A stretch of 63,999 nucleotides of DNA, counting the filler, from Diploschistes diacapsis (taxonomy: Eukaryota), in the NCBI GenBank assembly GCA_023645945.1. It is 4 parts of 4 records of this genome, joined end to end, with 100 filler letters (N's around TTAATTAATTAA, not from the genome) between each part and the next. Parts side by side here need not be neighbours in the genome. Positions count along the whole stretch, not along the records: positions 48,247 to 63,999 come from JALAIB010000536.1; 3 more parts are not named here. The stretch is one strand, 5' to 3'. Both the position numbers and the translations under genes were made by a program. The notes beneath the pieces are model-generated. The model did no database searches. It was given only the letters and a program-made list of their open reading frames with translations, and had not been told where the DNA came from. Shown here piece by piece: positions 16,000-63,999 of the stretch (its first letter is position 1; each line of letters opens with the position of its first letter).

Positions 16000-16099
16000 N
16001 NNNNNNNNNNNNNNNNNNNNNNNNNNNNNNNNNNNNNNNNNNNTTAATTAATTAANNNNNNNNNNNNNNNNNNNNNNNNNNNNNNNNNNNNNNNNNNNN
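16000..16099. other. Artificial contig spacer (44 N + TTAATTAATTAA + 44 N)
   Basis: Identical 100-bp structure at three places; the 12-mer puts stop codons in all six frames. Confidence 0.97.
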
Positions 16100-29332: not shown

Positions 29333-31698
<2,366 letters not shown>

Positions 31699-32091
31699 GA
31701 GGGAATCGCCCAAGCAGCATGCACCTCAGATTTACTACTTAATATCGGGCGTGGATGAATTTAAGAAGCTGCTTGCTTGCAATGGATATGCATTTTCACG
31801 AATACTCTGGCCTCTTCGGGGCCCGCGGCCGGTGGTGTGGAAAGCGTTGTCTCGCAGTGCTCTTCGGTTCCCGGTCCTCGCTAGCCCGGGCCGCCGGGGT
31901 CAATTTTTTAGTAATATAGGACTTCTTCTGTCTGCCTCCAGATACTGTACATTGTACATCGTTTGCGGCCTTGGAAAGACCAGCGGTACCCTTGGCCCTT
32001 GTAACCGCAATCGGCCCGCAGCTCCAACAGCCCATCATAATTTCGTTCGCACTCCCGTCCCCGCCGCTCCCCATGACACACGGCCCCCTTC

Positions 32092-32191
32092 NNNNNNNNN
32101 NNNNNNNNNNNNNNNNNNNNNNNNNNNNNNNNNNNTTAATTAATTAANNNNNNNNNNNNNNNNNNNNNNNNNNNNNNNNNNNNNNNNNNNN
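32092..32191. other. Artificial contig spacer (44 N + TTAATTAATTAA + 44 N)
   Basis: Same structure as 16000-16099. Confidence 0.97.
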
Positions 32192-33240
32192 TATTAATTA
32201 TAATACGGCCTAAATTTTCGTTTTTCGCAACCAATAATTCCGCTAAATATTCTATCTTTATATCAATACGGGTTTATGTTTTTTATAAAAGAAGTTTATT
32301 ACGTTTAATACGGCGAGTAAATTTAAGAAACCGATCAATATCTTTTTATATAGATCGTTTTAATACGTTTTATGTCCGTTCTAGACGAGCCTATGACATT
32401 TCCACGTAAGGACGACCACGGTATACATATTCCGAATATTTTAGGATTTTAGAACTAGACGGCATGACGAAATAGGATTTGTCGTTAAAAGAACAATATT
32501 TATAAAAAGAAGTAGTAAAGATTTTATAACGAACGATAAAACGAGAAAGTTGGATTCGTTCGACGGATTGGTTACGAGAAGTTAAAAGAAACATCGTTGT
32601 TTTACGATTTAAGATTCTTTTTTATTTAATACTTATATTAGACCCTTCGGCGAATCATCGGGCCGATAATATTAAAGAAAGAAGATAATATTACGATCCA
32701 AATATTAAACTTAGCACGTCCTAGCTTTATATATAGATCAGTTACGGGACCAAAGATCATATAATACGTTTATTATTCGCGCTTATTCTCGTGAACGGCG
32801 AATAAACTTTCGTTACCGCTCGACGATCGCGTTCACTTTTATAAACGACAAGTTTCGAAAATACCGTTCGTTAAGCTTATAATAAACGACAAGCGAATTA
32901 ATTATATATAAACACGATTTTATTTTCGTGAAAAAAGACGTGTTCACTTTTATAAATATTTTAAGTTATTACTCGAGATTAATTTATATTCGTTATTTTT
33001 ATTATCTTAAAACTTTTTTTTTAGAAATAGTCTAAAATCTATAATTATTCTATCTTCTTTTCTTACTACACTCCTCTTCTAACAGAAACCAAACCTACCT
33101 TGATCCTACTCGTGTATACCTTGTATAGATAGAGATCATAACAGTTTTACGTATTTTTATAAATAATATATATTTATATATAAATTATATAGAGATTTAA
33201 GTATTTAATAGAGCCATAATGAACTAGACAGAATGCATAT
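32192..33240 (-). mobile_element. RIP-mutated LTR-retrotransposon-like relic with a degenerate Cys6 zinc-cluster accessory ORF
   Basis: Very AT-rich and TpA-rich. ORF 32391-32594 reads YKYC-x6-Y-x11-YSEY-x6-Y; reverting TAY to TGY gives Cx2Cx6Cx11Cx2Cx6C. Confidence 0.6.
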
Positions 33241-33884
33241 TAAGGCGCCACTAAATATGTTACACAATTTTATAGTAGGCAGAATAAGACATACCTCTTT
33301 TACTGGCATGGCCATAGCTTTCCGCATCTTTCTCTAGTCTCTCTAGTCTCGCTTAGGTCCGGTTCGGAAAATTAAGGTTGGTGTACGATGTCGCTTTTAA
33401 GGTTGCTAGCTGGATCCAAACTCGGAAGTCTCCTGCATACTTTGATGAGCATAGAACCATGTGCCACTTATTTTCAAAATCACATTGGTTTGGGAACAGC
33501 CTACATGCACCTCTTCTTACTTGACGTGGCACGACACTTTATTTAAGCATGGAAAGGTTGCTCAGCGAGCCCGCAAGCTGAAGGTTGCCTCCCATATCGG
33601 GAAGTGGGAAGGCATACGATACCTCGAAAGGACCTTATCCGTGGAGGTCTCAAGGTCAGCCTATGCGCCTTGAGTTTGGTGTTGATATAGATTTCATCAC
33701 TATATAATGTTGATGTTCCGTTGTCTATACTGCTTTTACCTTGTCTTCTTCATCACTTACGTTCGTTAATAGAGCGTTTTCATTTTCTGCTCCATCTTCT
33801 TATCAGTACCTTTTGTTTAAAATCCGGTTGCTCGTACATATTTATTTGGCTATTTGTTGGTTTCTTTAAGCAACTACATCCAAC

Positions 33885-35267
33885 ATGAAGCCACTCATCC
33901 TCCTCACGATCTCAAGTCTCGCGGCATTGGTTGCTTCTAACCCGGACCATTTCCAAACGGTTCCCAGCATTATATGCACCGACCCTCCGACTCAGACCGT
34001 CACTGTCACTCAAGATTGTGCCGTTTGCCAGACTGTAATTCCTGGTAGCGGCGGAAGCGGGGGTAGTGGAGCTAGCGATGGAAGTGGCGGAGGCGCCGGT
34101 GTGACCGTTACCATCACCGAGACTGTTACCACGACTCTTTCTCCAGTCACCCTCACCACCAACACTAGCAAAGGAAATGCCGTTTCTAGCACAACGTCCG
34201 GTGTTACTGCTCAGCAGACCTTCCATGTCGATGTTGGTGCCTTCAGTGTTGATGGTACCAATGAGACCGTCGTGCAGTTCCGCCCGAACAACATCACCGA
34301 TGCTCACGTTGGTGACGTCGTTCTCTTGTAAGTTTGAAACTTTAGCAAGCCTTTTAGCTTTTGGAGCTGACGTTGCCTCTTATAGCAACATGCTCGGCGC
34401 CAACCACTCCGTTACTCAATCCCAATTCCCCCAGCCGTGCATCAAGAACGGCACCTTAGATACCGGCTTCGTGCCAAATCCCAAGAATCACTCGGACTAC
34501 AGCCTCCAATCATTCACCGTCAACGTGACCACACCTCTGTAAGTACAATTGAGATGCAACATATTTGTCTCATAGTTAACAGTAATCCTAGCTGGTTCTA
34601 CTGCCGCCAAACTGGTCATTGCGGCAAGGGTAAGCCTATACGGCTCCCAGCCTCCATCTCCCGCAACCCACCACTAATTCTTCCCGCAGGCATGGTCTTC
34701 GGCATTAACCCCAAGTCCCAGGAGCAAATGCAGCAATTCATTGACATGGCCATGGCACATAACGGCACCGCCTCCAACTCCACCTCCGGCAACGGCACCA
34801 GTACCTCCACCAGCGGTAGCATTACCAGCACCTCCACCGCCCCCTTCGCCACCATCACTGTCGGTACCGGCAACGGCACAAATCTCGTCTTCGATCCGCC
34901 CAACCTCCCATCCGTGCCCCCGCATTCCACCGTTCGCTTCGAATTCCACGCAAAGAACCACACCCTAACCGAGTCCTCCTTCGGCGCACCCTGCTCCAAG
35001 CTCGACAGTCCGTCGGCGGTCGACATGGGCTTCGCCAACTTCAACAAGCTGGACGTGGCCCCCTTCAGCACGTTCGACGTCGCTGTGGAGGATGCGTCTC
35101 CGAGGTTCTTCTACTGCAAGCAGACGGTTGCTAAGAGCCATTGCCAGGCGGGGATGGTGTTTGGGTTGAATGTTGAACGGAACATGTTTGCCGAGTTTCA
35201 GCAGAAGGCGGAGGGTAGCGCGGTGCCACCGGCGCCGGGGAAGAGGGCGGCTGGCAGGAGGTGGTAG
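33885..35267 (+). CDS. Secreted Ser/Thr-rich protein with two cupredoxin domains, 3 introns
   Basis: Signal peptide. Domain 1: NHSVTQS…WFYCRQTGHCGKGMVFGIN. Domain 2: NHTLTES…FFYCKQTVAKSHCQAGMVFGLN. Each has the H…C-H-M type-1 copper ligand set. Confidence 0.88.
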
Positions 35268-43170: not shown

Positions 43171-45900
43171 TTACAAGCTCATAGTGAGCCATTCCCATTC
43201 TTGAGTCCCGGCGGCAGCTCCCGCACCAAGAGCATGATTACAGTTGCTGATAATGCCGGTGCCCTGAAGACCCGCATGGCGGAAGTCAGGTTGTGCAACG
43301 ACACTGGTAGATTCGGAGCCCTTCCTTCCATGTGTAGTCGCGCGTGAGCTCTGGCCGTTGGTGTCCTCAGCATCTGCCATTTCGGATTCTTGGGAAACGC
43401 CAGGGTTGGGTTTGGATTGTCTTCGTTGACGCTTAGGTGCGACAGCGATCGTCGAGCGGGTGGGCGCGGTGCCGGCAAGATTGGTGCTTGAAGCCTTTGG
43501 TGGTGCCGCAGCTATTGGAATGTTTCCTGTCTTCGAGGTTCCCGAGCTATAGTTCGTAGGCGTGCTTCCAGCGGTTGAGTTCTCGTTGGTCGAACCTTGC
43601 ACAGAGCCGGGAGACTCGGATTCATTTGCAGGCTTGCAGGATGGTGGAGTGGGAGCAGTTGCAACCGTCTGGCCTGTAGAGTTCTTGCGGGCAGCGGACT
43701 TCTTGCCCGAGCGCGTATTTGTAGTAGTTGGTACCGACGTACCACTGCCCCGATTCCTTTTCTTGATAACGTCCGTTTTTAAAGATAGGGGTCTGACGAC
43801 GCCGTGGAGCTTCAGAAAGAGTCCGCAGGCATTACACAGTGGCTGACCCTCAGGATTCCTGCGCCAGAGTGGAGTAGTCTGCGTAGAGCAGTTCGTACAG
43901 GTCGTTGAGACACTCCCGTCTCCGTTCCTGGAGCCAGCAGGACTACTCGGTCGTGAAGGGACAACGCTGCTTAGCCCAGACTCTGCTGGAGAGTTTGGTG
44001 ACGGCTGAGACCCTGAGACGCCGGAAGCTTGTTGAGCAAGGTTCAGGGTGTTGGGGGTTGAAGCCGTGCGTGGTATTTTCTGTTGGCGGGGGTCCGTGCT
44101 TCGATTTCGCACGTCGCTTACCGAAACAGAGGAACCATGCCTCCGATCCATTCCGCCTGACTGGCTCCAGTTTGGAGGCGAATGGACTGTATCAGTGCTG
44201 CCAATTGTCACCTGCTTTCGCAGCCCTCCCTGGCCGTACCTCACGCCCATGTTGTTGAATTGCCCTGTCAAACCAGTATCCCATTGCATACTGTTTGGAT
44301 CAACCGTGAGATCTTTCACGCTTTGGTAATCCGACCGCATGATTATGCCCTGATCGGCGAGGGAGACAAGGTCCTCATCTTCGTTATCCGAGTCTCCACC
44401 AAACGTAAACATCTGATCCGTTCGCGTAGCTGGCAATGGTGTGGTCTGAGAATTGGTGAAAGCAGGGTTCAAGACTCGAGATGGGTCTATATGCTGCTGA
44501 TTCGCAAATGATCGAGATTCGTAGCTTACCATGGGTGCGCTGGTCACGGCGTTGAACATTGAGCCTTCATTCGGATTGAAACTGTAGTTTGATTGGACAA
44601 CACTCGACTGATTTGAAGGACGGTTGACCGGGTAAGGTGCACTTCTGTGATGCCTCATATCGATGGGTTTGCTACGATCAAAATACATCTCATCCATGGT
44701 CTGGGCAGGCTGCGGTGTGGATGCATTCGAAGGGTAGGCAGACCCCGGGAGAGAATAGTAATCAGTGCCGCTCATTGACGGGCCAAAGGACGAATTATGG
44801 TACTGAGAGAATGGGCCGTGATTGACCAGTGGCGAGCCTGTTGGGGAGAAGCTGAAATTCGATTGGAAAGGTCCCGCAGAGTGTAGGATGGGATCGTCTT
44901 GTTGATTGTAAGAGCCAATATTGTATGGCAAAGTTGGGTGCGAAGTGCTATGGTTGGGAAAGCCGTTGCTGAGCGTCGCCCCGGAGTAATCAAGACTATA
45001 ATTGTTGAGACTTGTCTCTGCATCTGGCTCATTGGGTATCGAAATACTACCGACGGCAGGAACTTGAGGCGAGGATTCTGCAGGACGCTTTCGAGTCTAA
45101 TCGATATCAGCCAAGCCCTGGGGGAAGCAGCGTCAGGTAAACGTACCCTTCCTTCGTCTACACTCGTTTTTCTGATGTGTCTCTGCACATAGCCGAATTC
45201 CCTTTGCCGACTTCTCTCAAGGTTGATGCCTGGCGCGGACGCAAGAAATGGATGCTGTGGCTCTTGCGACTTTCTCGCTTTGATCGGAATGGAGGTTGGG
45301 ACAGCAGGATGGCCGGGGGTAAAGAAAGGAACAGGGGCTGGGGAAGGTGATGCCTCTGAGGGCGTAGCAATCGAGGTCGGGAATATAAGATCGTCAAGAT
45401 TCATCGCATCTAATTGATGGGTCTCAGGGGAGGCAGCAGCTGACTGTCGCAACTGCGCGATGCCAGAAGGCGCTGGGCTGGGTGTCTGAGACGTCGGTCC
45501 TGCTGAATGACAACTGCTAGGGAATCAGTTTCCGCTGCTGTACTCGAGGCAAGCCCAATCGTACCGCGCCGAATCTTCGCGTTCCTTTCGCTTTAGATTC
45601 ATGGCCATCATCCTCCATGTCAGGTTTTCCACGCGCTCCTGGTTTGGGAGTGACTTCTTTGTCCTGCTGTAAAGTCGCCATATCTGCATGGAGAGGGGAT
45701 CCTTCTCCTGCATCTTGTCGGGATCGTCGAGGTCGTCGCCGGTGGCATCATCTCTCCAGGTGGGGAATATTGCTTCGTGAAGAACCCCCTCACGAACCAC
45801 GTCGTTCTCGCCCAGTGAATCCAGTTTGACAACCTTTTGCGTGAAGAACACAAAGGTCGGTGGTCTAGACGAGTCTACAAAAAGAGGGCCTGAGGGTGGT
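43171..45900 (-). CDS. areA: Nitrogen regulatory GATA factor AreA/NIT2; 5' end uncertain
   Basis: GATA finger [34 protein letters not shown]-terminal [10 protein letters not shown]-terminal [26 protein letters not shown], and [16 protein letters not shown]. Start codon not identified. Confidence 0.93.
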
Positions 45901-46356
45901 GAAGGACCGCAGGCCGGGAAGACTGTGGGGAAGAGGCACAAAAATAATGCATCACCGCAGCTACTACGGCACAAAGCAGCTGACGAGGGGGGGAATGGGA
46001 ATGGGAATGAAGACTAATCGAGCAAAACTCGCCGTTCGAAGACGAAGAGTCAGAGTTCGTGTCTTGGTCTTGGGGGAGGCATAATGGGGTTCACGGCTTT
46101 GAGGAGCGAGGGGGAGTTCCCCCCCACGCGATTTCTGCGCCTTTAGTTGCTAGCTCCTTCCCACCAATTATGGGGGTACAAGCGGATAAAGTCGCCTCTT
46201 CAAAAACTGCTGAGATCGACTACATAAAGGGATCCTCCTTGTGCCTTTGTAGCCTCTATGCCCGGGCATGACTTTCAAGAAATACTACCTCCGGAAGTAG
46301 GTTCAAAGAGCTGTTGGGAGAAACTTCAAGGGGGCAAATGCGTGGTGCGCAAATTG

Positions 46357-48146: not shown

Positions 48147-48246
48147 NNNNNNNNNNNNNNNNNNNNNNNNNNNNNNNNNNNNNNNNNNNNTTAATTAATT
48201 AANNNNNNNNNNNNNNNNNNNNNNNNNNNNNNNNNNNNNNNNNNNN
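48147..48246. other. Artificial contig spacer (44 N + TTAATTAATTAA + 44 N)
   Basis: Same structure as the other two spacers. Confidence 0.97.
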
Positions 48247-49946: not shown

Positions 49947-51369
49947 TTAGCCACGTCTTGAGTCCGATTGCAGGATCTCTGAAGACACCATGATTCCTTT
50001 CTGGCTCAAGCCTGTTCGTGATGTTGATGTACCAGCCAGTGGCTGACTGCCGACGTGAACGTCACAAGTACCGTGTGTATCATAGAAATTCGCTCCCACG
50101 TTTGTGTCGAAGTTTCCTTTCATATTACTGCCTAGAGAGAATTGATTCGGAGTACGACCATCAGTACTGCTGCTCAGTTTAATGCCCTTCGTAAAGCATA
50201 AAGATAGAAAGCCCTGTACTCTGTCCACGAAGCCTCCCATGGACTGCCGCGCGAAAAGTGGACGAAACATCGGGAGACAGGCACAGACTGTACCAAGCGA
50301 GGTCTCGATAAAAGACCAGTACATCGTGGGGGCAGCATAGTCTGGACTTCTGTGAGTTGGTATGATTGTGAGCGAAGGCATTGGGGCTTACAAGTGATGT
50401 CCGAAAGTGGTGCTTTTCCCATTTCGAAAAAGAACGCTGTTCTAGTGATACCGGTTCCAATGACTCTATCGAGGGATCCAGGTTAATACTATGTGCAGGA
50501 ATCTAGAACGATGAAGATGCGGGGAAATACTTACATAGCGCCTGAAAGAAAGACCAAAATTACTTCAGCTTTCTGCCTGGTCGCCATCTGTAGCTTCAGT
50601 ACCGCCGGAATGGGCATAGCCAGAACCAGCGTGTCCGTAAGTACGTCCGAAATGGCGTATGCTTCCCATAATATTATTTTGTTCACGCTCGTCGCGGATG
50701 GAATTGTAGGGTCCCATACGGCGGCAATTGGCGTAGATTGGAAGACGAATGCAAAGAAAAAGGCTCCGTGCCAAACCAGTACGATGGTGCTCACGATCCA
50801 GGATGCACGCTTGAATGAAGCATTGACGAAGATCCGACGGTAGAGAAGAATCAAGGATAGTTTCGCGCAGACAATAGCCAATTGCGCCAAGATTTCAAAC
50901 GCATATTCAACCTAGAATAGAACAGAAGTAGAACAGTTAGCTGATTAACTATCGGAGAAGCTGGGGGAACGATATCATACTTGAGAGAAACGGACTAACT
51001 GGTCCAATTGGTCTGGAATTTCTGGGCTCTTGGTGTATGTTAGGTGCTGCCCCAAGTTCCCCGTGAGCGCCGCTATGAAGTATCAGAACATGATGAGAAT
51101 GAGAAAAATCCCAAGAAGCGCGACAGACCAATTACTTGGCATACTCCGGTCCCAATGGTGAACAGCTTTATATCCGTCAGGTGAAGACTTCTTAGCTATA
51201 TCTGGCATCGACTTGGGCATACCAGAGCTGGCAGGATCATATAATCGTCGGACGCTAGCCTTGCCTTTTTTATGGCCTTGGCCCAGAAGCGAAAAGCAAC
51301 GGCAACGATGGGCAGAAGCATGAAAACAGCAGCCAGGGCCACAATGTAAAGACTCTGGCTTTCAGCCAT
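49947..51369 (-). CDS. PTH11-like (fungal rhodopsin-domain) integral membrane protein, multi-intron
   Basis: VAVAFRFWAK…LASDDYMILPAL, AKLSLILLYRRIF, SDVLTDTLVLAMPIPAVLKLQM…QKAEVILVFLSG, and WSFIETSLGTVCACLPMFRPLF. No CFEM domain seen. Confidence 0.88.
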
Positions 51370-51956
51370 CGCAAATGCTGTGGAAAAGGAGATGTATAAT
51401 GCGGGATAAGTAGAAATGCGACCAGGAGCTATATATATATATATATATATATAGATTGGGGAAGTGTAATTCCTTCCTCTTCCTCTTCCACTTCCACTGC
51501 CCATTGTCAAGCTGCGAAGATTGTTTTGGAACTTTGACTAGCTAGCCGTTTGCGTACGACTTTTGGCCAATGCCACCACTAAACAAGTGTACTAAAAGCA
51601 GAAAGCTCGGATAATTGGCCAGCCACGAAGGACTGCATACCACCGTTGGAAGGCTTAGGCTTGGTGCCGACCTGGATCATAGCTTTTGCAAGGGTGCATA
51701 GGGATCGGCCACAGAGATCAGGACTGAGCAGTTGGAGATGGGTATTGACTACGCTTCGGCAGCTCCGAGGTTCCATACCACATGCAGTTACAAAGGCGGT
51801 CAGCTCTAGCTGAGACGCAGCGATGCAACGAGAGGCAAAACCACTTTATCGACCATATGATGGGCAAGGGCTTGCATCGCTTCCCTAGTCACTTCTCAAA
51901 TCGCCTTCATCATAACCTATCTTTGTACAAACAGAGCCGTCCACTAACGCACGACC

Positions 51957-53041
51957 ATGGCATCGAACAGTGGATCATACCCGTTGTCCCGCGGATACAA
52001 AGCCTCTGCAAGGTTCGATCTGATGGAGAATCTTTTCATGCAGATTCAGTCTAATCTACCGCAGGCTGAACTTGCAGCATTTCCTCCACGTCAAAGATAC
52101 TGGATATATTCTACACCCCGCGGTTTCATTGCCTTCCGAAAGCGTAAGGGTTGCCGACATTGGTACCGGAACTGGGTATTCCGCCCCAAACTCGTTTGTA
52201 GTTCAAGCAGCTGATGCTCAACAGCATTTGGCTCATTGATCTGCAAAGCCATCTTCCAAGTTCTGCATTGCTGGATGGATTCGATGTCAGCTCCCTTCAG
52301 TTTCCGCCGAAGGAGTGGCTCCCGCCGAACGTTTCTTTAAAGCTGTTGAACATCCTTGAAGAAGTTCCTGAGCATCTTCACGGCAAGTATGATGTGGTGA
52401 ACATTAGGTATTTTTGTTGCGTGGTAAAGGATAACGACCCCGGGCTGGTTATCAAGAACGTTCTGAAGATGCTGAGTATATCAAGATCTTCACTATATTA
52501 TCCTCAAGTTTCCGAGATATGTATTTCATTCGTTGAAAATTGAAGATGAGCTATGTGCAATTACTGACCATGATTTTAGAGCCTGGAGGTTATTTACAGT
52601 GGTCCGAGCAAGACTATACCTCGCAACAGGTTGTGACGGCGAGTCCAGATATCACGAAAAGCCCATTTGTTTCCTTGAAGGATGAGCTTGAAGCACGAAG
52701 CAAAACCACGGTTGGGAGATTCAAGTAAGCAGCTCCCAAAGTCCCACTATTGCAACCCTAGGATTTCTCTTGACTTGAGTAATAGCTGGATATCCAAACT
52801 CGATCAATCCTTTGATGATTACGGATTGATCGATGCTTTTGTCGCTCGCAGTCCGGAAAAGACCGAGTTCTACTCATTCTGGCAACACACATACATGATG
52901 GTCTTGGAGGAGATGAGCTATAGCGTGAACGAGGGAGACACCGTGAGAGATTTGCTCCAAAAGACGCAAACGCAGACTCCAGAAGGAGTATTCTGGCGCA
53001 GGGGCCACCTTACCTTCGTTGGGAAGAAGCCCAGTGTTTGA
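51957..53041 (+). CDS. Class I SAM-dependent methyltransferase (GliN/SirN-like secondary-metabolism type), 4 introns
   Basis: YPLSRGYKASAR|LNLQH…GYILHP…RVADIGTGTG|IWL…LDGFDVS…YDVVNIR…PGGYLQWSE. Confidence 0.88.
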
Positions 53042-53335
53042 CAGGCCCTTGCTGTACCGCTGACTCAAGCGAGCCGATAGAACTGCAAGAGCAGTGGTCG
53101 ATTGAATGGGATACTGGACCAAAAAAGAGGCGTGCTTTTTACAATGGATATAGTCCTATAGATCCCATCATGTTACCATTGTAATTTTGGTATGATTGCT
53201 GCTATTGATTTTCTCCTGAAGCGGTGCCTCGAATAGGAATATATTTAGATTGCTGTATACTAGCCAATGTCAAGCGCTTGGCCTCCCATGGCTTGAGGTC
53301 TCCGACATCTTGTGGTTCTGGTCGATATGGACCAT

Positions 53336-53669
53336 TCAGGCTTTGTGGTCCTCCACAGGCCATGCTGCATACGCAGCTTCATCCTGATCAACTCGTTTGT
53401 GAACAGACCGTTTGTGATCCTCTACCGGCCATGCCGCGTACGCAGCTTCGTCCTGGTCAACCCGCTTTCGGATGGACCTCTTGTGGTCCTCTACCGGCCA
53501 TGCCGCGTATGCCGCTTCGTCCTGGTCGACTCTCTCATGGACCTCTATGCTCTGTTGGCCGACCGATACATATATCTAGTTGGCACAGGGGCTTACCACG
53601 GCCCGTTATGACGGGTGCTGCCAACAAGCCTCCCATGAAGAGTGGGAGAAGGTAGATGGTGGACCGCAT
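53336..53669 (-). CDS. Kex2-processed repeat protein; putative dikaritin RiPP precursor (93 aa; exons 53669-53597 and 53544-53336)
   Basis: Manual translation: MRSTIYLLPLFMGGLLAAPVITGR|EVHER-VDQDEAAYAAWPVEDH-KRSIRKR-VDQDEAAYAAWPVEDH-KRSVHKR-VDQDEAAYAAWPVEDH-KA*. It has a signal peptide, a 52-nt GTAAGC…TAG intron, a 69-nt repeat period and flanking DUF3328 genes. Confidence 0.9.
53342..53530 (-). repeat. Three 69-bp-period coding tandem repeats of the precursor
   Basis: Matching anchors on the + strand at 53344, 53413 and 53482. Confidence 0.95.
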
Positions 53670-54283
53670 ATCTGATAAAGGCTTGCGTTTCGAAGGGCAC
53701 CACCGTTGAAGCTCAGAATACTAGTAGGTGAAAGCTGGGGTCAAATTCTCCGAGGGACCTCTCCAAAACGGCCTGATGTGAAATACAATGTAGCTCTCGA
53801 GACCCAAACCTGAGATGCATAACTCATGCCAGGCAGGCTCTTATCAGGAGAATCAAGGACATAGCAGCAGAATGTTGCGCCGCCGCCGTGGCTCGGCTGC
53901 AGCTCGTTCTGGGCATGATAACAAGCTTGAGAAGGATGGAAACCATTGGGTATTGATGGCTTGCAGGTCGGAACTGCAGGAAGCAGACAGTGAGGGGGAA
54001 AAAAGCAGATTCTTGCAGTAAGTCGCAGGGGCACCAGAGCTCAGTTTGGTAAAAAGTTGCGAGATGCTACTTCCCGTGCCTCGAAAGAACCATCCTGCCT
54101 CAATTGCAGACTTGATACGTTGCATGATACATGCGTTAAATGTATGCCCATGCAGAAGGATTCCCCATGACCCTTCGCTTCCGGCTCGGTCGAGCGGGTA
54201 CATACATAACGGTGAATTGCGCAACAAAACAGGCTCAGAAGTATAATAATATCTTATAAGCGAAGGTATAGTGGAAAGCAACT

Positions 54284-54326
54284 TGAAGAAGAAGAAGAAG
54301 AAGAAGATGATGATGATGATGATGAC
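54284..54326. repeat. (GAA)n(GAT)n compound microsatellite in the precursor/DUF3328 divergent intergenic region
   Basis: Read directly from the sequence. Confidence 0.85.
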
Positions 54327-54786
54327 AAACTGTAAGAGGTTTGCATTCACACTTTGAGAATGAGATCGTAAATGCCCTCGTCTTTTCATAGTGTTAAATG
54401 GGCTGTGTGTGTGTGTTTGAATGTGCATGAGCTCGAATGATGATCTCTACCCGCCGGCGCGATAATAGCATTTCCACTTGCCTCTTTTCAGTTAGGAGTC
54501 TGTGCTGCTACCCTTGCCGGACACAGTGGGCGCAGAGAAAAAAAAGATAACAGGGGGAAAGTTAAAAGCTCGGAGGCTTTGCGATACAAGTGTTTGCTTT
54601 GTACATGATCAAGTTTGCCTGGTCTTTGCCTTCATACGTTGATGCAGGGATCTTCTATTTAGTCGTACCAACGCATGTGATGGATGGCAGCTGTGTCTCC
54701 ATGCTAATCTTAGAGAGAAGAAGAGTAGCCACCGCTATCCTCGCCATCACACAAAGTTATTCTCATTCCTGCCCAGAGCAATTGCA

Positions 54787-55628
54787 ATGTACCTCGACTG
54801 TTTGACCCCAAGGTCCATCCGCTATTCTGCTATTCTGGGCACGAGCAGGTTCGACGGAGGCTTCCGTACTGAGCAAAAGCAGAAAACCCGCTGGTATCTA
54901 ATACCGACAGTGCTTGCTTTGATGATTGCATCCGGCAGTGTTGGCTACATCTTCGGTAGTTCTTCACATTCCGATCATGATTCCGGGCTGCTTGGTATGA
55001 CTTCTCCTGTCCTCCAGGTTCTGATTTGCTCCTAAGACTTCTTCTCATAAGCCCCTGCTGGGACGGTCGAGAAGCAATTTACGTACAACCGTACGTTTTC
55101 AGTGGCGCCCACAAGCGAGACGATCGAAGCTTGGAAAGGGTTATTTCCAGGTATGCGTCTTGGCCAGAGGAAACTAGTCGGATCGGATCAAAATAATGGA
55201 AAGAAACGAAGCAGATAATGGAGGATTCATTCATCACCCTGTGCTGGCCACCAATTTCTCGGGAATCGCCGTGTTTCATCAACTTCATTGCCTGGTGAGC
55301 CGAGATGTGCCTCCTTTATTCCACTTGTTGACTATTGGATCAAAAGCATGCTCTATATGACCTTTATTACGGTTCGATGGAGCAAGAATTGCAGAGGACT
55401 CGAGAGCGGCATTCTAAACATTTAGATCCTTCAGTCCACGCGCGTCATTGCTTCGATTACCTACGGCAGTCTCTGATGTGTCAAGCGGATACTAACCTCG
55501 AGCCGTACGATTATCATCTGGACGGTGTGACGGGATGGGTGCAGAGGAACTGCCGCGATTACGACGCAGTAGTCACCTTTGCCAATGCTTGGGGTGGTAG
55601 CAAGTATGCAAACAAGCAGGACAAGTAA
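54787..55628 (+). CDS. DUF3328 / UstYa-family oxidase (copy 1), 3 introns
   Basis: N-terminal TM helix, FTYNRTFS…EAWKGLFP|DNGGFIHHP, twin HxxHC motifs AVFHQLHCL and HARHCFDYLRQSLMCQADTNLEP, and GW…CRDYD. Confidence 0.93.
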
Positions 55629-55761
55629 ATAGAATCTGTGGAAGCAAACTCTTTACCCATTCGTCGCGAGTTAAAGTGGTAAGCGCAAGACCGGTGGCTA
55701 TCTGTAGATTGAAACCAAGGGCTTGCTATATCGACCAAAACTTTCCTGGTTCCGACAGGAT

Positions 55762-56854
55762 TCAGAGCACCATGCTCGGTACCGGGGTGCTAAGTAGGGT
55801 CGACCCCAACGGCAGTTCGAGCAAGTCCGGGTCAAATAAATTAACCGTGCGTTTTGCAGTCCATTCTCTCAATCGTCCCCAGTTCACACATTGATGGTAA
55901 GTTCTTGTCTTGACGAAGGGATACAACAAGCCCTCTTCAGTCCTGGCAAAATAGAATGGTGTGAGGGAAATATCGCCACTGCACATCGTGGCAAGCCGTA
56001 GCACCTCCAAACAATGATCTAAGAGAATTGGCTTATGTCTCCAAGGCGGTTCGGGAACGCTCACCAACGTGCATTCTTTGGGCCTTTAGTTCCAGCTCTG
56101 TCGCATTCGGAAAGTAGTGCTCGTGGGAGAGATAGTGTCGAATTTGTTTCTGTAAGTGAGTAGTGAGACAGAGCCTTGGAGTAACAGGCGGGTAGGGTAA
56201 CAAGTATTACCAGACAATGTAACTGGTGTGTAGATGCCAACTGAGCGACATATCCCTAAATCACGCTCTATTAGGTACAAAACCCAAGCTGTAAGGCTTT
56301 TCAAAGACGACCAACCGTTCCGTTCTTAAAGATCAATGAGGTATAGTTGGCGGCTTCCAATTCCTCTTTAGATACACGGATGTGAGAATCTGGGCTTGCA
56401 ATATCAGCCAGCGAATAGAAACCTCCAAGGCAAAGGGTGATAATCATGATACATCTCAAGAGCTCATGCCAGGCTTTGTCGAATTCTGGACGCGGATCCC
56501 CAGTGAAAGGGTTGTCGTAGGTCCGTGGATAGAATGTCTGCTGTTGGTATTCAACGGCAATAGTTGCTGGTGCTGGGTCTGATTAGCTACCATCGGGGTC
56601 TGCAAGAGAATAGACCTACAGGGAACTTTAAAAGAATGAGGTGTTGAGTGAACAATAAAGAAGAAAATGCAAGTATAGAGTGCAATCAGACCGATATGTA
56701 GATTAATAGGCTGACAGACAAGCCGACGAAGCTGCTGCGTAGAATGCTTGCCATCGTTGTTACCGTTCAATAGGGAAATGTCCTCCCCGCCATCAGGGCA
56801 ATGCTCTTTTGAAAGGGAATGCCGAGAATCAAAACTCATCGCGTCTGTTGTCAT
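55762..56854 (-). CDS. DUF3328 / UstYa-family oxidase (copy 2, different subfamily), ~5 introns
   Basis: TM helix, NPFTGDPRPEFDKAWHELL, HIRVSKEEL, GYVAQLASTHQLHCL|KQIRHYL, HV|DHCLEVLRLATMCSGD, and HQCVNWGRLREW. Confidence 0.92.
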
Positions 56855-57199
56855 CTGTTCACAATCAATATGGCACTTTGGAAGACAGGTTTTCGGATAC
56901 CAGAGGTTCAATTATAGTTATCTATTAACTGTTGCACAAGGCATCTGCAGATGGGGGGGACTTCTTCCATTCAGTCACCACCAGCTTGACCCATTCACCC
57001 CTGCGTACATACACACACATGCAGCACATCAGACAACAAGTAATTCATGTGTATTTTTACTCTGTGATATTGCAAAGCGCCAGTTTAGTGCCGCTAGGCC
57101 ACATAGCCAAAAGACCAACAATACTGGATGGTGCCAGTATTGAACTACGCTGATATATATAGCGAAACCCACGGTAGATACTTCATATATAAAAGTTAC

Positions 57200-58067
57200 T
57201 CAGTCATTCTTCGCTTCCCTCGCGATGCGCAAGACGAATTGCTTGACCTCTTCGGGCTTGGTGAGCCAAGGTATATGGCCAGTCTCTAGAGTCTTCGTCT
57301 TCTCCTCAGGGAAGCCTGCCATCTCCACCGTTTTCAGCTGATAGTCATGCTTGAAAGCTTGGTCCAGAGTGGTCAGGATATAACCGGATGGAATCTCTCT
57401 GTATGTCTCGTGTGTAAGCGGGGAATCGTAGACACTAAACACGCTTGTTAGGCGAGGAATACAAGCTAGTTTTTCAGAGCGCATCTCACCCAACAGATTG
57501 CGCTTTTAGTAACGAAGTCCAGTATCTCGCCTGGCTTTCCTCCAGATCGTTGTAGAACATGTTAGTAGCAAAATCTGGCGGCAGACCCAACAGACCGTCC
57601 TGTTGCCAGTCTTTGAGTCTTCTCTCCGTCTTGAATTGGCCGGATTAACTTACTTGGGTGAAAGCTTGCCGCGCCGGCTTCCAAGTCAGGTCACCAACAG
57701 CCCCCAGGTGGTCATCGAAACAGTTACCCTTTCTGGGCACCATTGAAGCGATATATATCAAAGCTATGACGCCCGCACCACTTGTCGAGCTTTTCCCCAG
57801 CCCGTGCAGCGCTTCGGATCCCGCAATCCCTCCAAGTGAGTGCAAGACGGCGATGATGTCTTTTTTCTCCTCAACTAGCCGGTTAGCTACATTGCCCACT
57901 GCAGCAACATCGCCAGAAAAATCTGTTGCTGGTGGATGGGCGCCGACGCTAGGAAGGCCAATGGCCTCCGTGGGGTATCCTGCATTCTCGAAGACTTTTG
58001 CAAGGGGCTCAAGATAGTCAACTGTATGCCACGCTCCACCAACAATAAGAACTGTTGGTTTCTCCAT
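57200..58067 (-). CDS. Alpha/beta hydrolase (Abhydrolase_6 / methylesterase-like), 2 introns
   Basis: KPTVLIVGGAWH, nucleophile elbow HSLGG, acid in TLDQA, and His in TGHIPW. Confidence 0.9.
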
Positions 58068-58525
58068 CACCTTAAAGTACAAGAACAGAAGGAGACAATT
58101 TGACAGCAATTGAGAAAAGCAAGTGGAGGAGAGGACGCGCAGAGGATGATTCTAGTACAGAAGACTTACGCTGGCGCTTCAGCTGAAGTAGCTAGGAAAG
58201 CATGTGGGATCGCGATGGAGAGGTGTGATATCTCCCCCCTGCTTACACCGAGTGGCTTGACTCCGGTGCAGCGAGTGGAATACACAGCGTAGCACAAGAA
58301 TATAATAAAACCAAGAAAGTAAAAGTTGCGATCTTGAGGAGGTGTGTGACTGACACTAAGTAGAGGAAATACGGGACAACCCGGTCCCCGCTTGCCCAAC
58401 CAACTGCATAAACGAGGCAATGCTTCACCATGCTAGCTTTCACGAAAACGGGGAAAAGTACATAGTAAACCATAGGGTAACAGCAACTGCCTTGCTGCTT
58501 CAAGTGGCTTCTGTATCGTCCGATT

Positions 58526-59533
58526 CTAGGAACGTGAGCGGCTTGCAAGAATCAGCACGATTGGCCAGGTGTACAGCCTCGTTGCCTTTTCCCCTCCCAT
58601 TCCCACCTTCAGCTGTTCAAAGAGTTGCCTCATCTCTGCGTCTGCTTCCACTGCCGAGTCCACTCCTGGGAAGCTAGAATTCACGTATTTTCTTACCCCA
58701 TGGATATTCCAGCCGGCCTTCCAGAACCCAGCATCTTCTTTTTCAACAACCTTCTCGGTCATCCTAACTCGATTCGTTAGCTCAACAACAAAGTCGACGG
58801 CTTCTGGCCCAAACCCCATCTTTGCACTCTTCGCGTTCCACTTTATTCGCTGCACCAGGTCCCAATGTCCGTCAGAGAGATCCACATTGTCCAGCCAGCT
58901 TGCCATTCCCTCTGCTGCTCTTTTCCATGTAGCTCTGTTCTCCGTGTCTCCGCCCTTGATCACCTTGCCGAAGGTCAAGTTTAATATTCGGTCGAACAGT
59001 GGCTGGCATCGTGCCTTGTACTCAAGCTCCGAAAAGTGAGGTCTTCCATAGAACCATATCGCTAAAGTACCATTGGGTTTGAGCACGCGCGCAAAACTCG
59101 ACAATGCAGCAGCTGAATCCAGGAGAGGAAAGCACTGTGCTGCAGTGATGAGGTTGGCGGACTCTGGCGGACAGTGGCGACTTAGATTCTCCGCTGTGCA
59201 TTGTACATATTGAATATGGTTTGAGGATAGTACCTGACATTTCCGCAGAGCGTCAAGGGAGGAGATATTACTGTCGCTTGCTATAACACGCCCGAAGCGC
59301 TTGGATATCTCGATTGCGGCTTTACCGGAGCCGCAAGCGACATCATGAGCGATCCCAAACAACGTCGAATCTTGAAGCTTGCAGGAGTGATATTCGTAAA
59401 TAATCCTGAGGAAGTCAGAGTCAGCGTAATTAGGACGCACAGCTTCATATTCTCTCCAGTAATCCTCTTCTGAGCCCGAATCGACCTTCCAAAGACCCGA
59501 GCCGGCAGAGGAAGAAGCTTTCGCCGTCGTCAT
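58526..59533 (-). CDS. SAM-dependent methyltransferase (Methyltransf_11, Crg1/Tmt1-like), intronless
   Basis: YEAVRPNY, AHDVACGSG motif I, RVIASD, ANLITAAQCF, and VLKPNGTLAIWFYG. Confidence 0.9.
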   Translation of the reverse strand: MTTAKASSSAGSGLWKVDSGSEEDYWREYEAVRPNYADSDFLRIIYEYHSCKLQDSTLFGIAHDVACGSGKAAIEISKRFGRVIASDSNISSLDALRKCQVLSSNHIQYVQCTAENLSRHCPPESANLITAAQCFPLLDSAAALSSFARVLKPNGTLAIWFYGRPHFSELEYKARCQPLFDRILNLTFGKVIKGGDTENRATWKRAAEGMASWLDNVDLSDGHWDLVQRIKWNAKSAKMGFGPEAVDFVVELTNRVRMTEKVVEKEDAGFWKAGWNIHGVRKYVNSSFPGVDSAVEADAEMRQLFEQLKVGMGGEKATRLYTWPIVLILASRSRS

Positions 59534-61373
59534 CTGTCCGATACACAATAAGCTTGAAAGATATGAGCCAAGAACAAGAGCTGGACAAGTAGGGATTGAG
59601 GCTTATAATTATTTCAACATTTCTCCTCACTATAATTGCTCTCGCGCTAATGAACGATGCATTGCCTGCAGGTTGCAAGTTGCACGAGACCGATCATTAA
59701 CCTTCTGCGATCCGACAGCCATTGTATAGGATATAGTTACTGGCTGTTGACCAATTGGGAAGGTCCACATTGAGAAATTCTTATACCCGGCCCCTAACAT
59801 TCTTTCTGTCTTCTGACATGGGCAAGTACGAAGCGGCTGGTATAACATAGCCGCATCTCACTCCGCCATAAACCTCGAATTCATCATCAACGTCACCCTG
59901 ACCTCTTCCGGCGCATACTGGAACGCTTCCTCCCCCACATCCTTCCACCCCTCCTCCACCATATTCCGCGTCTCGCTCGCCGCCGTATCTGCCGGCCCTT
60001 CCGCGTCTAGCAAGCGGCCCTTCATCGACGACGTCTGCACGGACTTCTTTGCGCCGATCAACTCGAACGGCCTTCTACAACGCCTGCGTCTCGAGCGTGA
60101 GCGTCCAGATCACGCCATTCCCCGAGACGTGCAGGATGGAGACGAGGGCGTGGATGAGGGGGTCGAGGCCAAGGGCACGAAGGTGAGGGGTTGGATGTCG
60201 AAGGAGTTCTTGGCGGTGTGTTCTTCAGGGAAGTGTTGGGATTTGCGCTACGGCGTGTGCGAGGTTTCGGTAAGGGAGGTGCGGGACCAGTAGTCTATGG
60301 CTGGGAGGACGTGGGGGCTAGTGGTGGCGGTAGTAATAGTAGTAATAGTGGTGGTAGTGGTGGTGGTAGTGATGGTGGTGGTGGTGGTGGTTCAGGAGAG
60401 CGAGCGGAGGAGAGTCTCGACCTTGTGGGCGGAGTCGATGTTGCCGGCGGTTGAGGCGGGCTTGTCGGTCAGCGTAGTCCAGACGGCGATTTTCAGGGTG
60501 GCGCGCTCCAGCGGGAGGAAGATGCCGGCTTCGCCGTCGAATTTGATTTCGCAGAGTCGCCCTTTGATGTTGGAGTCGGTCACTGTGAGAGTGTTGGCGG
60601 TATTTCTTTCGAAATGTTTAGTTACGGGTTGCGGTAGGATCAAGTTGCCAAAATATACCACGAAAGAGTTTCGAGGAGAAAGGGCGGTTGGAACAAAAGG
60701 TCTCATAGTTTGCTCTCTTATGTGCAACGGTGCAGGCAGCCGTGCGTTCACTACCAGGACTCTGTACTAGCGTCAAGTCTCCGAAAACAAGGCTCGTCTG
60801 TATAGATGGTTTTGCCTGCCATAGGCAGGTAATGAATTCCGTATCATGGTCAGGACTTTGTGGATACCAAGTTAGAAGTACGGTTCAATCATTCTGACCG
60901 ACATCATAGCCACACATTCTCAAGGAAAAACCCGGTAATACCTTTTGGGCCGGTCCTGGGCCCAAGTAGAGCGATATTGGGTCACCGTCCTGATTAATTC
61001 TTATTTACTCATCTCGAGATCGAGAACTCGAGAAAAGGAAACATGAGAGTGCCAAAGGGGTGTAGAGTGAACTAAAAAAAGGCCTGACAAAAGGACATTG
61101 TTTCAAGGCAAACGAGCAAATAGGCAGTTAGGAGTAAAGAGATAAGGAATGCCGCCAGGAATTCGGAAAGGTTTATGTTAAATCTTCTAACTTATTATCG
61201 TTTCAAGGATGGCGTTTTCCTAGTGAAGTGAATCTATCTAGTTGTATACTTCTATCTAGTGGTATATACGACCTATCCAGTACCAACATCTGTCCCTACT
61301 GTACATTCCCGTAAATACAATATATATCCACCACAAGCACCATCTATCCCTTAACAACCAGATATTACACATT

Positions 61374-62846
61374 TTATAGGTTATGTATACCCTCTTCAGA
61401 CCCAACTTCGCCCTCCCTCTCTCCGGTATCCTCATCATCCGCACCCTCAACCTCACCATCATCCTCCGCATCCCATTTCTTTGCAGTCCCCTTAGCCCTA
61501 CCCTTGCTACTCATGAGCTTCGACAGCGGACAAACCCCCACCTTCGCATCCTTACCCATCTTGGCACTACACCACCCACAATTCCTGCCATGCTTGATGA
61601 GGAGATAGTGTAGCGGATACTTCAGGTCGTCCGGGATACGCACGTCCAAATGGGCGTATGCCGACTCCCGCGTGACGGCGCCCATTCGCTTCGGCTTGCC
61701 ACCTTGCTCCTTAGCCAGTGCCTTTGCCAACGTCCGCGCCTTTTGGTCCGACGGCACCCAGCCGAGCCACTTCGTCAGGCGGAAGACGTGGGTGTCCACG
61801 GCGAAGCTAGGGCGCTGCATGCAGAACAGGAGCACGCAGGAGGCCGTCTTAGGACCTATGCCGGGGTACTCGAGGAGCTTGTTGAAGGCTGTGTCGTTGT
61901 CCAGTAGATGCAGGTGGTCGAGCGAGAGGATATTGGAGGCGGCCTTGGTGACTTCGGCCTTGCGCTCACCTTCTTCCTCCTTGATTGCATCTTCCTGGCC
62001 GCCGGCCTGGCCGCTTTCGAGTTTCTCTTTGCGGGCCTGGTTCTCGTCGTACACCATCTGTAGGATCTGCTTGATGTGCCGGCTCTTGACATCCGCGAGG
62101 CCGCCCGTTTTGATGGCTTCGAAGACGAGCTTCACGTCGGCGCGCCGAACGGCGTCCCAGTCGACGCTGCCCTTTCCTACGCCCTCTTGGATGATGCCGA
62201 ATTTTTCGACGAGCCCGCGGAACGCTCGGCTGGAGTTCTGGTTGTTGGTGGCGGCGCTCAGCCGCGTGCGGATTAGGGCGTCGAGCACGCTTGGGACTTC
62301 GCCGCAGCCTGAGTTATTCAAGCTGGGCTGGGGAATCGTCTTTGGCTTTTGTACCTTGCCGTGCGCCTTGCTGAGAATATCACAGACTTCCTTGCATTCT
62401 GCAGGAGTTGGGTGGTCATAGCCGGGATACGGAGACTGGCCGGGCGAGAAACCGTACAGGTTTTTCTTGGCCGGGTCTAATTTTGCCCTTTGCGCATTCC
62501 GATTCGCAACGAAGCCAGCTGCCATCTTGGACCCAGCTTCAAGATCCGCATTGGATGGGTTTCTGGTCTTCTTTTTTGAGGCGGAGCTCGAAGATTTGGA
62601 GCTTCGTTTGCGCGGTGACTCTATGTCCGTATCTTCGGTCTTAGTATCTTCAGTTTTGACTTCTTTCTGAGGTGAATCCTGTGCTCCTCGCTTCCGCTTC
62701 CGTGTAGGTTCTGGTAGTTCTGCTTTCACGTTGTTCTTGGATTTGCTTCTGTTTGTCTTAGCTGTGCTTGTTGGTTCAGGGGGTTGATTCGCTTCCTCCT
62801 TGAGCTTCGCTGACCCAATAGAATTTCTAGACCTAGTTGTGGGCAT
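61374..62846 (-). CDS. HhH-GPD base-excision DNA glycosylase (endonuclease III-like)
   Basis: GCGEVPSVLDALIRTRLSAAT, HhH motif LLEYPGIGPKTASCVLLF, FAVDTHVFRL, and HGRNCGWC…CPL. Confidence 0.92.
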   Translation of the reverse strand: MPTTRSRNSIGSAKLKEEANQPPEPTSTAKTNRSKSKNNVKAELPEPTRKRKRGAQDSPQKEVKTEDTKTEDTDIESPRKRSSKSSSSASKKKTRNPSNADLEAGSKMAAGFVANRNAQRAKLDPAKKNLYGFSPGQSPYPGYDHPTPAECKEVCDILSKAHGKVQKPKTIPQPSLNNSGCGEVPSVLDALIRTRLSAATNNQNSSRAFRGLVEKFGIIQEGVGKGSVDWDAVRRADVKLVFEAIKTGGLADVKSRHIKQILQMVYDENQARKEKLESGQAGGQEDAIKEEEGERKAEVTKAASNILSLDHLHLLDNDTAFNKLLEYPGIGPKTASCVLLFCMQRPSFAVDTHVFRLTKWLGWVPSDQKARTLAKALAKEQGGKPKRMGAVTRESAYAHLDVRIPDDLKYPLHYLLIKHGRNCGWCSAKMGKDAKVGVCPLSKLMSSKGRAKGTAKKWDAEDDGEVEGADDEDTGEREGEVGSEEGIHNL

Positions 62847-63471
62847 AGCGACAACATGAAGAAAGCGGACTCTGCAGGTCCAGCTACGAAAGACCAGAGA
62901 AATAATGATGGGTGTAGCTGATTAAATGACAATATACTTTTGCTTGGGTAATGATTATTATGATCAAGAATCTGAATGAAATTGCAAGGCAATTATTTGT
63001 TGAGAATATTGGTATAGCAAACTCAGTCACTACTCAGCTGAAGCAAATCAGCTTTCTATACAGTAGAGATTAGCTGGAAAGTAGAGATTCCGTCATAGAA
63101 GACATCCTTCAGCAACAAGCATACATCCGCTTATCTCCGTACTCGTACTTCTTGCGAGCTTCTCAGGCTGACATTGCCTGAAAGTCCAGAGCAGCTCCGG
63201 CGTGCCTCTTAGTCTCCGAGTTCTCAGAACAGGCAATAGAAAAGAGGAGCAGCTTTGGAAAGCCTGGAAAGCAGCAAGACCAACCCCATTCGCAATTACG
63301 AACCTTTCTAGTCAATTCCACCCACAGGCGACTTTGCACCAAGCTCCCTCCACATCCGATCCACGTCTCAGGCACAACACCGAAAGCTTGGAGCTCCACC
63401 AAAATAGACCTCATTCCTTTTCATTTCCAGATCTGCCCGAGTAGCAATCATCTTCCTCGAAATATAATAAT

Positions 63472-63999
63472 ATGTCGACCCTTCTGCCCCCAGCCTCAAA
63501 CCCCTCCGAAGACATCATCACCCAACTTCAAACATGTCTCGATCAGGTACCTTCCTGCCCTTCCGATCCCCTCCCCCTATTCCACAAAGCCCAGCTACAC
63601 AAACTAACACCTCCTCTTGCCTCTCAATAGCTCGCAACCCAATTCTACGCCTCAATCCGCTACATAAACGAGCACCACCCCATGTCCGACTTTGGCCCTC
63701 CCAGCACCGACGGGAACCTTAAAAACTATATGAGCGTCGCCGCCTCCCTCGCCCGCCCCTCCGACCAGCTCCCCAATTCATCTTCCACCCAGCCCTCCAC
63801 CCAGCAGGCCGAATCCACACAACCACCCTCCTCCTTTCCAGCGCAACCCTCCAACCCTGCCTCCCAACAGCCTCCACCCTCAACGCAAGGCAACGCTGAA
63901 GTAGACGACGCCGCCAATCCTGACAGTTACTCAAAATCCCAGTCCAAGGACAAAGACAAAGACAAAGACAAAGACAAAGACAAAGACAAAGACAAAGAA
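63472..63999 (+). CDS. med21: Mediator subunit Med21/Srb7, partial (runs off the window); intron 63547-63630
   Basis: DIITQLQTCLDQ|LATQFYASIRYI matches the Med21 N-terminus. The intron is GTACCT…CTAAC…TAG, and the frame stays open to the end of the window. Confidence 0.82.
63949..63999 (+). repeat. (GACAAA)n hexamer repeat encoding a DK tract in Med21
   Basis: About 8 copies at the window end. Confidence 0.9.

Follow-up and report, generated by a model that had tools for sequence, protein, structure and literature searches.

We analyzed a stretch of 63,999 nucleotides (the window), joined from four parts of four records of the Diploschistes diacapsis genome (GenBank assembly GCA_023645945.1), and report here on a putative peptide gene cluster in its right-hand part. 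A sequence-only reading had claimed six contiguous genes at 51957-59533, and all six are present there: a methyltransferase-like gene (MT1), the gene of a repeat precursor peptide, two UstYa/DUF3328 genes (YA and YB), an alpha/beta hydrolase gene, and a second methyltransferase gene (MT2). The gene models were spliced by script with the window sequence as their only basis, and every spliced model is a clean open reading frame (ORF) with GT..AG introns of 41-104 nt. Five of the six genes carry introns, all of them short in the ORF listing and the six-frame reading, and the genes are tightly spaced, with gaps of 134-1118 bp. A seventh gene, outside that interval, encodes a Pth11-like protein with seven transmembrane helices (7TM) and is treated together with the others below.

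Precursor peptide and UstYa proteins

The precursor gene (53669-53336, minus strand) has two exons, i.e., a putative signal-peptide exon (53669-53597) and a core exon (53544-53336), and encodes 93 amino acids. Its N-terminus, MRSTIYLLPLFMGGLLAAPVITG, consists of a basic residue and, behind it, about 15 hydrophobic ones and is signal-peptide-like by inspection only; comparable first exons were seen, also by inspection, in the precursor relative P0002 and at the related loci L001, L012, L016, L023, and L077 described below. The core exon carries three copies of VDQDEAAYAAWPVEDHK with the spacers RSIRKR and RSVHKR between them, and the final unit ends in HKA before the stop codon. There are thus three units of 23 amino acids, each with a 17-amino acid repeat, which Tandem Repeats Finder reports as a period of 69 in 2.8 copies (82% matches, score 249). 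Dibasic Kex2-type KR sites stand after HK-R and after RK-R/HK-R, in agreement with the KR repeats that had been read from the sequence. The definition in PMC9632046 requires a repeat unit of at least 10 amino acids, as is the case here. At the DNA level, the copies of the 17-amino acid unit differ pairwise at 5, 10, and 7 sites, and all of these differences are synonymous, with zero non-synonymous ones; the spacers between the units, in contrast, do carry non-synonymous changes. Since the copies are identical in spite of these DNA differences while the spacers vary, this is direct evidence of selection on the peptide itself.

Relatives of the precursor are few. Among 5.8 billion clustered proteins there are only three (P0002-P0004), one of which is annotated as Icmadophila ericetorum. 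All three carry DQDEAAYQAWPVEDH repeats, where the residue after Tyr is the sole position that varies relative to the window; DQDEAAY[QA]AWPVEDH is invariant in P0002-P0004, and the spacers vary. A HMMER pass of the core exon over 1.84 billion representatives gave five matches, with P0003 as the relative, and added no further one. P0009, P0011, and P0012, which also matched in that pass, are unrelated repeat proteins on inspection, and the fifth match is P0010, with 3806 amino acids. A precursor pattern scan of JGI metagenome contigs gave 163 matches, none of which was confirmed.

The two UstYa genes lie next to the precursor gene. YA (54787-55628, plus strand, four exons, 222 amino acids) starts 1.1 kb from the precursor, and YB (56854-55762, minus strand, six exons, 273 amino acids) is convergent with it, YA ending at 55628 and the YB stop lying at 55762. 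When checked with HMMER against PF11807 (UstYa), YA scores 52.8 bits (E 6.4e-14) and YB scores 27.1 bits (E 4.7e-6), both above the Pfam gathering cut-off of 25. Each protein has two HxxHC motifs, namely HQLHC and HARHC in YA and HQLHC and HVDHC in YB, the last of these being split by an intron, in agreement with the claim of two DUF3328 oxidases with intact twin motifs. Both proteins also have an N-terminal hydrophobic segment (anchor). The least certain border in the YB model is that of the first intron (41 nt). A profile search of the PDB found no UstYa structure, and a word-index search for longer relatives of the last YA exon returned three matches only.

Related loci and a conserved module

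A small alignment of YA (its last exon) retrieved 80 related loci from JGI metagenome contigs, which form 37 groups at a nucleotide identity of at least 85%; the window models were run against them as tblastn queries. The convergent YA/YB pair recurs at 24 of the 80 loci and in 9 of the 37 groups; among the 55 loci whose downstream sequence is 1.5 kb or longer, 20 have it. Beside the pair, an acidic two-exon precursor with Tyr-x-Trp is found in five of the nine pair groups and in none of the 28 others. These related precursors are built of a putative signal-peptide exon and a core exon, the latter with one to five units of D-x-D-[DE] followed by Y-x-W: five units of DADDKVVYTWSLPEEK-x-KR in the L001 group, two units in L012, one unit of EDADEAIAYAWFTEE in L016/L017, three units of DADDAVAYAWVVGPPE in L023, and one unit of DADDVVVYAWAQD in L077. 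Precursor and YA are divergent in the L001 group, with the spacing that is seen in the window. In a tree of C-terminal segments, the YB-type proteins form a clade of nine rows that includes the window YB and has a support of 98/96. The comparison defines a broader sub-family of UstYa clusters that seems to be undescribed and is marked by Tyr/Trp cores and a YB clade of its own. A looser-motif hunt for precursors in L015, L022, L028, L039, L024, and L027 found nothing convincing.

The same loci bear on the question whether the peptide is modified at all. The repeat protein could be an unmodified Kex2-processed secreted peptide, pheromone- or effector-like, with the UstYa genes acting on some other substrate: UstYa proteins are also found in non-ribosomal peptide and polyketide pathways, and 78% of the Kex2-processed repeat proteins in a 2020 survey are without a nearby DUF3328 gene (PMC7329392). 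However, no non-ribosomal peptide synthetase or polyketide synthase lies beside the genes in the window, five separate locus groups with different cores repeat the order of precursor, YA, and YB together with its divergent orientation and the two-exon build of the precursor, and Tyr and Trp are invariant where the neighboring core positions change. We consider an unmodified peptide highly improbable, and a core modified by YA and YB is the reading that we follow.

The 7TM gene (49947-51369, minus strand, multi-exon) is about 2 kb from the precursor and matches the Fung_rhodopsin family PF20684 with E 3.5e-32 in its central exon and 2.3e-7 in its last exon. The protein is without a CFEM domain and begins directly with a hydrophobic helix. 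PF20684 is listed under Pth11 and Pth11-like receptors, i.e., class XIV of the G protein-coupled receptors (GPCRs) in fungi, in Table 1 of a 2026 review (PMC13308352), which describes the ligands of Pth11-like receptors as unknown. With the central exon as tblastn query, a homologue was found in six of the nine YA/YB-pair groups versus 1 of the 28 non-pair groups, the latter match being weak (Fisher p 2.3e-4, a statistic over 37 locus groups from one collection); in the three pair groups with no match, the contigs are 1.4-6.3 kb long. When the ORFs of nine representatives were compared all against all, the picture was the same: the N-terminal, central, and C-terminal 7TM exons are each present in seven, YB in nine, and YA in eight, the two representatives without 7TM exons being contigs of 3.4 and 6.3 kb, and no other window ORF is shared. 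The conserved module is therefore made up of four genes, namely precursor, YA, YB, and 7TM.

We found no report in the searchable literature that ties the PF20684 family to a peptide cluster; the one paper there in which DUF3328 and Pth11 both appear is unrelated. The 7TM protein would most likely serve export or self-protection, or peptide sensing. It is tempting to go one step further and to regard the cross-linked Tyr/Trp peptide and the 7TM protein as a cognate signal-receptor pair, i.e., a modified-peptide signaling system of filamentous ascomycetes, in this case of a lichen fungus; we rate this as unlikely, although it would be the first genetically predicted ligand for an orphan Pth11-like GPCR if true. 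The steady tie of the module to a Pth11-like 7TM protein is a testable lead on a receptor family that has no known ligands.

Several of the related loci deserve a separate mention. The assemblies behind L001-L022 (JAABU... contigs) hold three pair-bearing locus types at the same time (L001-, L015-, and L017-type), and the YA/YB/7TM module has therefore multiplied within one organism or community. In L068 (772-1710, minus strand) and L071 (7748-8686, minus strand), a single open frame contains five D-W-Y-x-D-[ST]-[AT]-S-G repeats together with a domain resembling UstYa (QHQYHC...). The frame could represent a fusion between a precursor and its own UstYa enzyme, or two neighboring genes that are read through unspliced. 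L046 has another kind of repeat precursor (2656-3342, plus strand) about 1.1 kb from a YA-like gene; it encodes five ..[AE][AV][NS]WAGPTE..DGKG[AV]TRR units and a putative signal peptide.

Accessory genes and surroundings

Three genes of the interval stand apart from the module. MT1, a class I SAM-dependent methyltransferase-like gene (51957-53041, plus strand, 272 amino acids), has five exons at 51957-52012, 52065-52175, 52225-52475, 52580-52724, and 52786-53041. Its single exons gave no Pfam match even at E 10, and a phmmer search of an MT1 exon against the PDB found nothing. The spliced protein, when aligned by hhalign to a hidden Markov model (HMM) of the MT2 family (44 MT2 homologues), matches it in residues 48-154, the SAM-binding region from VADIGTGTG to LKPGG, with a probability of 85% (E 6e-6); the controls, hydrolase and YA, stay at 0.5% and 0.3%. 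The hydrolase (58067-57200, minus strand, three exons, 255 amino acids) matches Abhydrolase_6 with E 2.3e-7 in exon 1 and 0.009 in exon 3 and has an HSLGG nucleophile elbow, while a query with exon 1 found no relative by sequence in the PDB. MT2 (59533-58526, minus strand, single exon, 335 amino acids) is a class I SAM methyltransferase of the Tmt1 (trans-aconitate 3-methyltransferase) type, with matches to Methyltransf_11 (E 9.4e-12) and Methyltransf_25 (E 2.2e-11); the nearest solved structure is the yeast trans-aconitate 3-methyltransferase (PDB ID: 3g5t, E 1.7e-6). The two methyltransferases and the hydrolase of the sequence-only reading are thus in place as genes.

Whether they belong to the cluster is another matter. 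Homologues of MT1 and of the hydrolase were found by tblastn at none of the 80 related loci, and a homologue of MT2 at one (L054). The comparison thus gives no support to the six-gene extent claimed earlier: three of the six genes are nearly or fully without counterpart at the related loci, and the 7TM gene was missed. [quoted passage not shown] It is quite possible, though we lean slightly the other way, that the functional cluster is the conserved module only (precursor, YA, YB, and probably 7TM) and that MT1, the hydrolase, and MT2 are unrelated neighbors, such as a Tmt1-type methyltransferase and an esterase from ordinary metabolism, which would not methylate the product. Besides the tblastn counts, the distribution of MT2 agrees with this: its 44 homologues are widespread, the named ones coming mostly from metagenome-assembled genomes of lichen fungi and also from dermatophytes, and in Icmadophila the best MT2 homologue (locus tag 008108, on a 44.9-kb contig) is apart from the precursor homologue (locus tag 010347, on a 13.6-kb contig). 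Related clusters use other enzymes instead, three groups sharing an O-methyltransferase of another family (Methyltransf_2) and two sharing a P450.

The packing of the locus speaks for a closer relation, however. The six genes are separated by the short gaps given above, and MT1, which is divergent from the 7TM gene and about 590 bp from it, is enclosed by the module, with the 7TM gene on one side and the precursor on the other; it is therefore the best placed of the three accessory candidates. Methyltransferases are also usual in dikaritin clusters (PMC12048977). P0016, which is 58% identical to MT2, and P0004, one of the precursor homologues, are each encoded on a contig of 11,159 bp, probably the same one, as judged from this equal size alone. 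At L054, the MT2-type methyltransferase is 42% identical to the window MT2 and about 800 bp from a YA-like gene, and no repeat precursor was seen there. Please note that L054 (4136-13458) is a different arrangement in itself, in which the YA-like gene has no YB partner and is flanked by a BBE-type FAD oxidase, the MT2-type methyltransferase, and a P450. Overall, we regard MT1, the hydrolase, and MT2 as candidates for lineage-specific tailoring, which might involve methylation and ester or peptide hydrolysis.

Farther out, the housekeeping genes reported to the right of the cluster are partly confirmed: the HhH-GPD gene is backed by Pfam, and Med21 weakly so, by two consecutive exons whose matches (E 0.016 and 0.04) fall on neighboring parts of the model. 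The sequencing run that best matches the stretch is labeled a lichen metagenome and may be its source. Relatives of about 95% identity in two other sequencing runs, one of them a rock metagenome, span the whole of 50000-63999; the interval is stable across these relatives, which says little about function.

Between YB and the hydrolase, some 100 bp (57060-57170) have a summed contig depth about 40-fold above their flanks in all three runs (4940 versus about 118 in run X1). Numerous contigs terminate at this place and have dissimilar flanks, the pattern of a dispersed high-copy element, which is single copy in the window; no tRNA, no Rfam family match, and no inverted repeat was found in it. 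A long A/T homopolymer/low-complexity tract lies at 54230-54340, within the 1.1 kb that separate the divergent precursor and YA genes, and contigs of run X1 break there. On the left side, runs of X in the ORF translations at about 48190-48203 indicate an assembly gap of Ns, which separates an AreA-type GATA factor gene (43171-46013) from the 7TM gene and makes the left border of the cluster unreadable. Elsewhere in the window, AT-rich islands were seen at 32001-34000 (GC 0.35) and 16001-18000 (GC 0.41) versus about 0.50 in the rest. A possible second metabolite cluster lies at 7177-31638, with an ABC transporter (7177-11745), a P450 (12743-14574), a 2OG-Fe(II) oxygenase (27390-28304), a GMC oxidoreductase (29804-31638), and also a fucose-lectin-like ORF (19632-20129).

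Proposed pathway and comparison with known systems

Taken together, the locus of this lichen-associated ascomycete is likely a ribosomal peptide cluster that depends on UstYa proteins (ustiloxin/dikaritin type); KR-separated tandem repeats, PF11807 genes near the precursor, and twin HxxHC motifs, the sequence hallmarks of dikaritins, are all found here. By analogy with ustiloxin, phomopsin, and asperipin, the precursor would enter the endoplasmic reticulum and Golgi, where Kex2 would cut at KR, and YA and YB would oxidatively cross-link the core (PMC7329392, PMC9233826). The cross-link would most likely run through the invariant Tyr and Trp, because no other residues are aromatic and no other core positions stay invariant in all six precursor types. 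The residue that follows Tyr is variable (A/Q in the window lineage, T/A elsewhere), which resembles the non-bridging second residue in YAIG/YVIG. Recognition would fall to the acidic D-x-D-[DE] stretch and to the Pro-acidic tail, both of which would be trimmed later, and the peptide products would derive from VDQDEAAYAAWPVEDH(K).

Several points weigh against this assignment and have to be considered. No tyrosinase was found with Pfam in the six genes, the flanks, and 35 ORFs scanned across the window, out of 76 with 130 or more amino acids; the original five-gene definition of dikaritins (Ding 2016) includes a tyrosinase, and later definitions drop it (PMC12048977). It is family membership alone that ties YA and YB to a cyclizing as opposed to a hydroxylating or other UstYa activity, and the YA clade did not resolve in the tree that supports the YB clade, the C-terminal segment being too short. 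The first repeat unit is preceded by ER and not KR (H-E-R, window 53545-53556, at the start of exon 2), which makes the release of this unit uncertain; another protease may be needed for the first copy, and the Icmadophila homologue has N-K-R at this place. The core itself deviates, too. Tyr-x-x-Trp is found in the window and P0002-P0004 and Tyr-x-Trp at the related loci, and the window fails the strict motif of D-x-D-[DE], two to three residues, and Y-x-W: its Trp is as far from the acidic motif as at those loci, and its Tyr is one residue earlier. By motif, the window is therefore a variant and not a strict member of the Y/W-core module, and ring size or linkage may differ from those at the Y-x-W loci.

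The comparison across loci has its own weaknesses. Four of the nine pair groups show no precursor; short contigs make up three of them, but the fourth, L014/L015, has 20 kb. All loci were retrieved through YA, and several groups share assemblies. The groups are locus types, partly paralogues, and not independent species.

Lastly, there is no record of an RNA run that contains the stretch. This is a blank only, and most fungal clusters are silent in culture, but it would fit a silent or decaying relic that makes no product in the living lichen. A relic is hard to reconcile with seven gene models that are all open with canonical splice sites, with repeat units that differ only synonymously, and with relatives of about 95% identity in two other runs that retain the whole interval, and we consider it very unlikely. 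A functional UstYa-dependent cluster remains our reading of the locus.

With respect to novelty, the core strings AYQAWP, AYAAWP, AWPVEDH, YQAWPV, VYTWSL, YTWSLP, AYAWVV, and YAWVVG are absent from the searchable full-text literature. Ding et al. (PNAS, 2016) reportedly list 27 predicted dikaritin precursors, and this core could be among them. The repeat unit differs from all characterized cores named in the papers cited here, in line with the earlier remark that it matches none of YAIG, YVIPID, FYYTGY, and GLKLAF, and we provisionally regard the core as undescribed. We know of no RiPP characterized from a lichen-forming fungus; because the locus supplies a clear precursor, the mass of its product is predictable and testable.

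Ustiloxin (UstA, UstYa/UstYb) and phomopsin share with the window a secreted (here putatively so) tandem-core precursor with KR/Kex2 sites (PMC7329392, PMC12048977), at least two UstYa/DUF3328 genes with twin HxxHC motifs beside the precursor, a core Tyr, and one or more methyltransferase genes nearby. Unlike their Y-x-I-x cores, the window core AAY[AQ]AWPVED stands in a 15-residue invariant acidic unit and contains Trp. No tyrosinase, S41 peptidase, or transporter is found among the window ORFs scanned, and the window module has a conserved Pth11-like 7TM gene. In asperipin-2a (AprA/AprY) and victorin, UstYa enzymes act without a tyrosinase and on non-Y-x-I cores and give ether cross-links of aromatic side chains (PMC9233826), but their cores, FYYTGY and GLKLAF (PMC7329392, PMC9233826), differ from that of the window. 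Trp is present in the window core and in none of the characterized cores described in the available text of the papers cited.

The locus also fits the operational definition of KEPs, the repeat proteins that Kex2 processes, with DUF3328 neighbors; in 1461 fungal genomes, 1758 of 7878 KEPs have a nearby DUF3328 gene, with a mean of 1.7 per KEP, mostly directly adjacent (PMC7329392). Neither "lichen" nor "Lecanoromycetes" occurs in the main text of that paper, its W-plus-P type P-3 is described, in the text available, as being without Tyr, which the window core has, and its supplementary tables give accessions and not repeat sequences. The lichen DUF3328 clans R1 and R2 likewise come from lichen-forming fungi, with Icmadophila ericetorum in the data set, and have DUF3328 proteins with HxxHC (PMC12048977). 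In the available text of that paper, R1 and R2 are without a conserved repeated precursor, whereas the window has a clear three-unit one; the accessory genes differ as well, i.e., tyrosinase and O-methyltransferase plus FGE-sulfatase in R1 and GNAT acetyltransferases in R2. On its own, the locus is one more KEP-plus-DUF3328 member, and such loci are numerous. It goes beyond plain membership because the Tyr/Trp-core family has its own YB clade and a linked Pth11-like gene, and this sub-family suggests a cross-link chemistry distinct from that of the Tyr-Ile ethers known so far.

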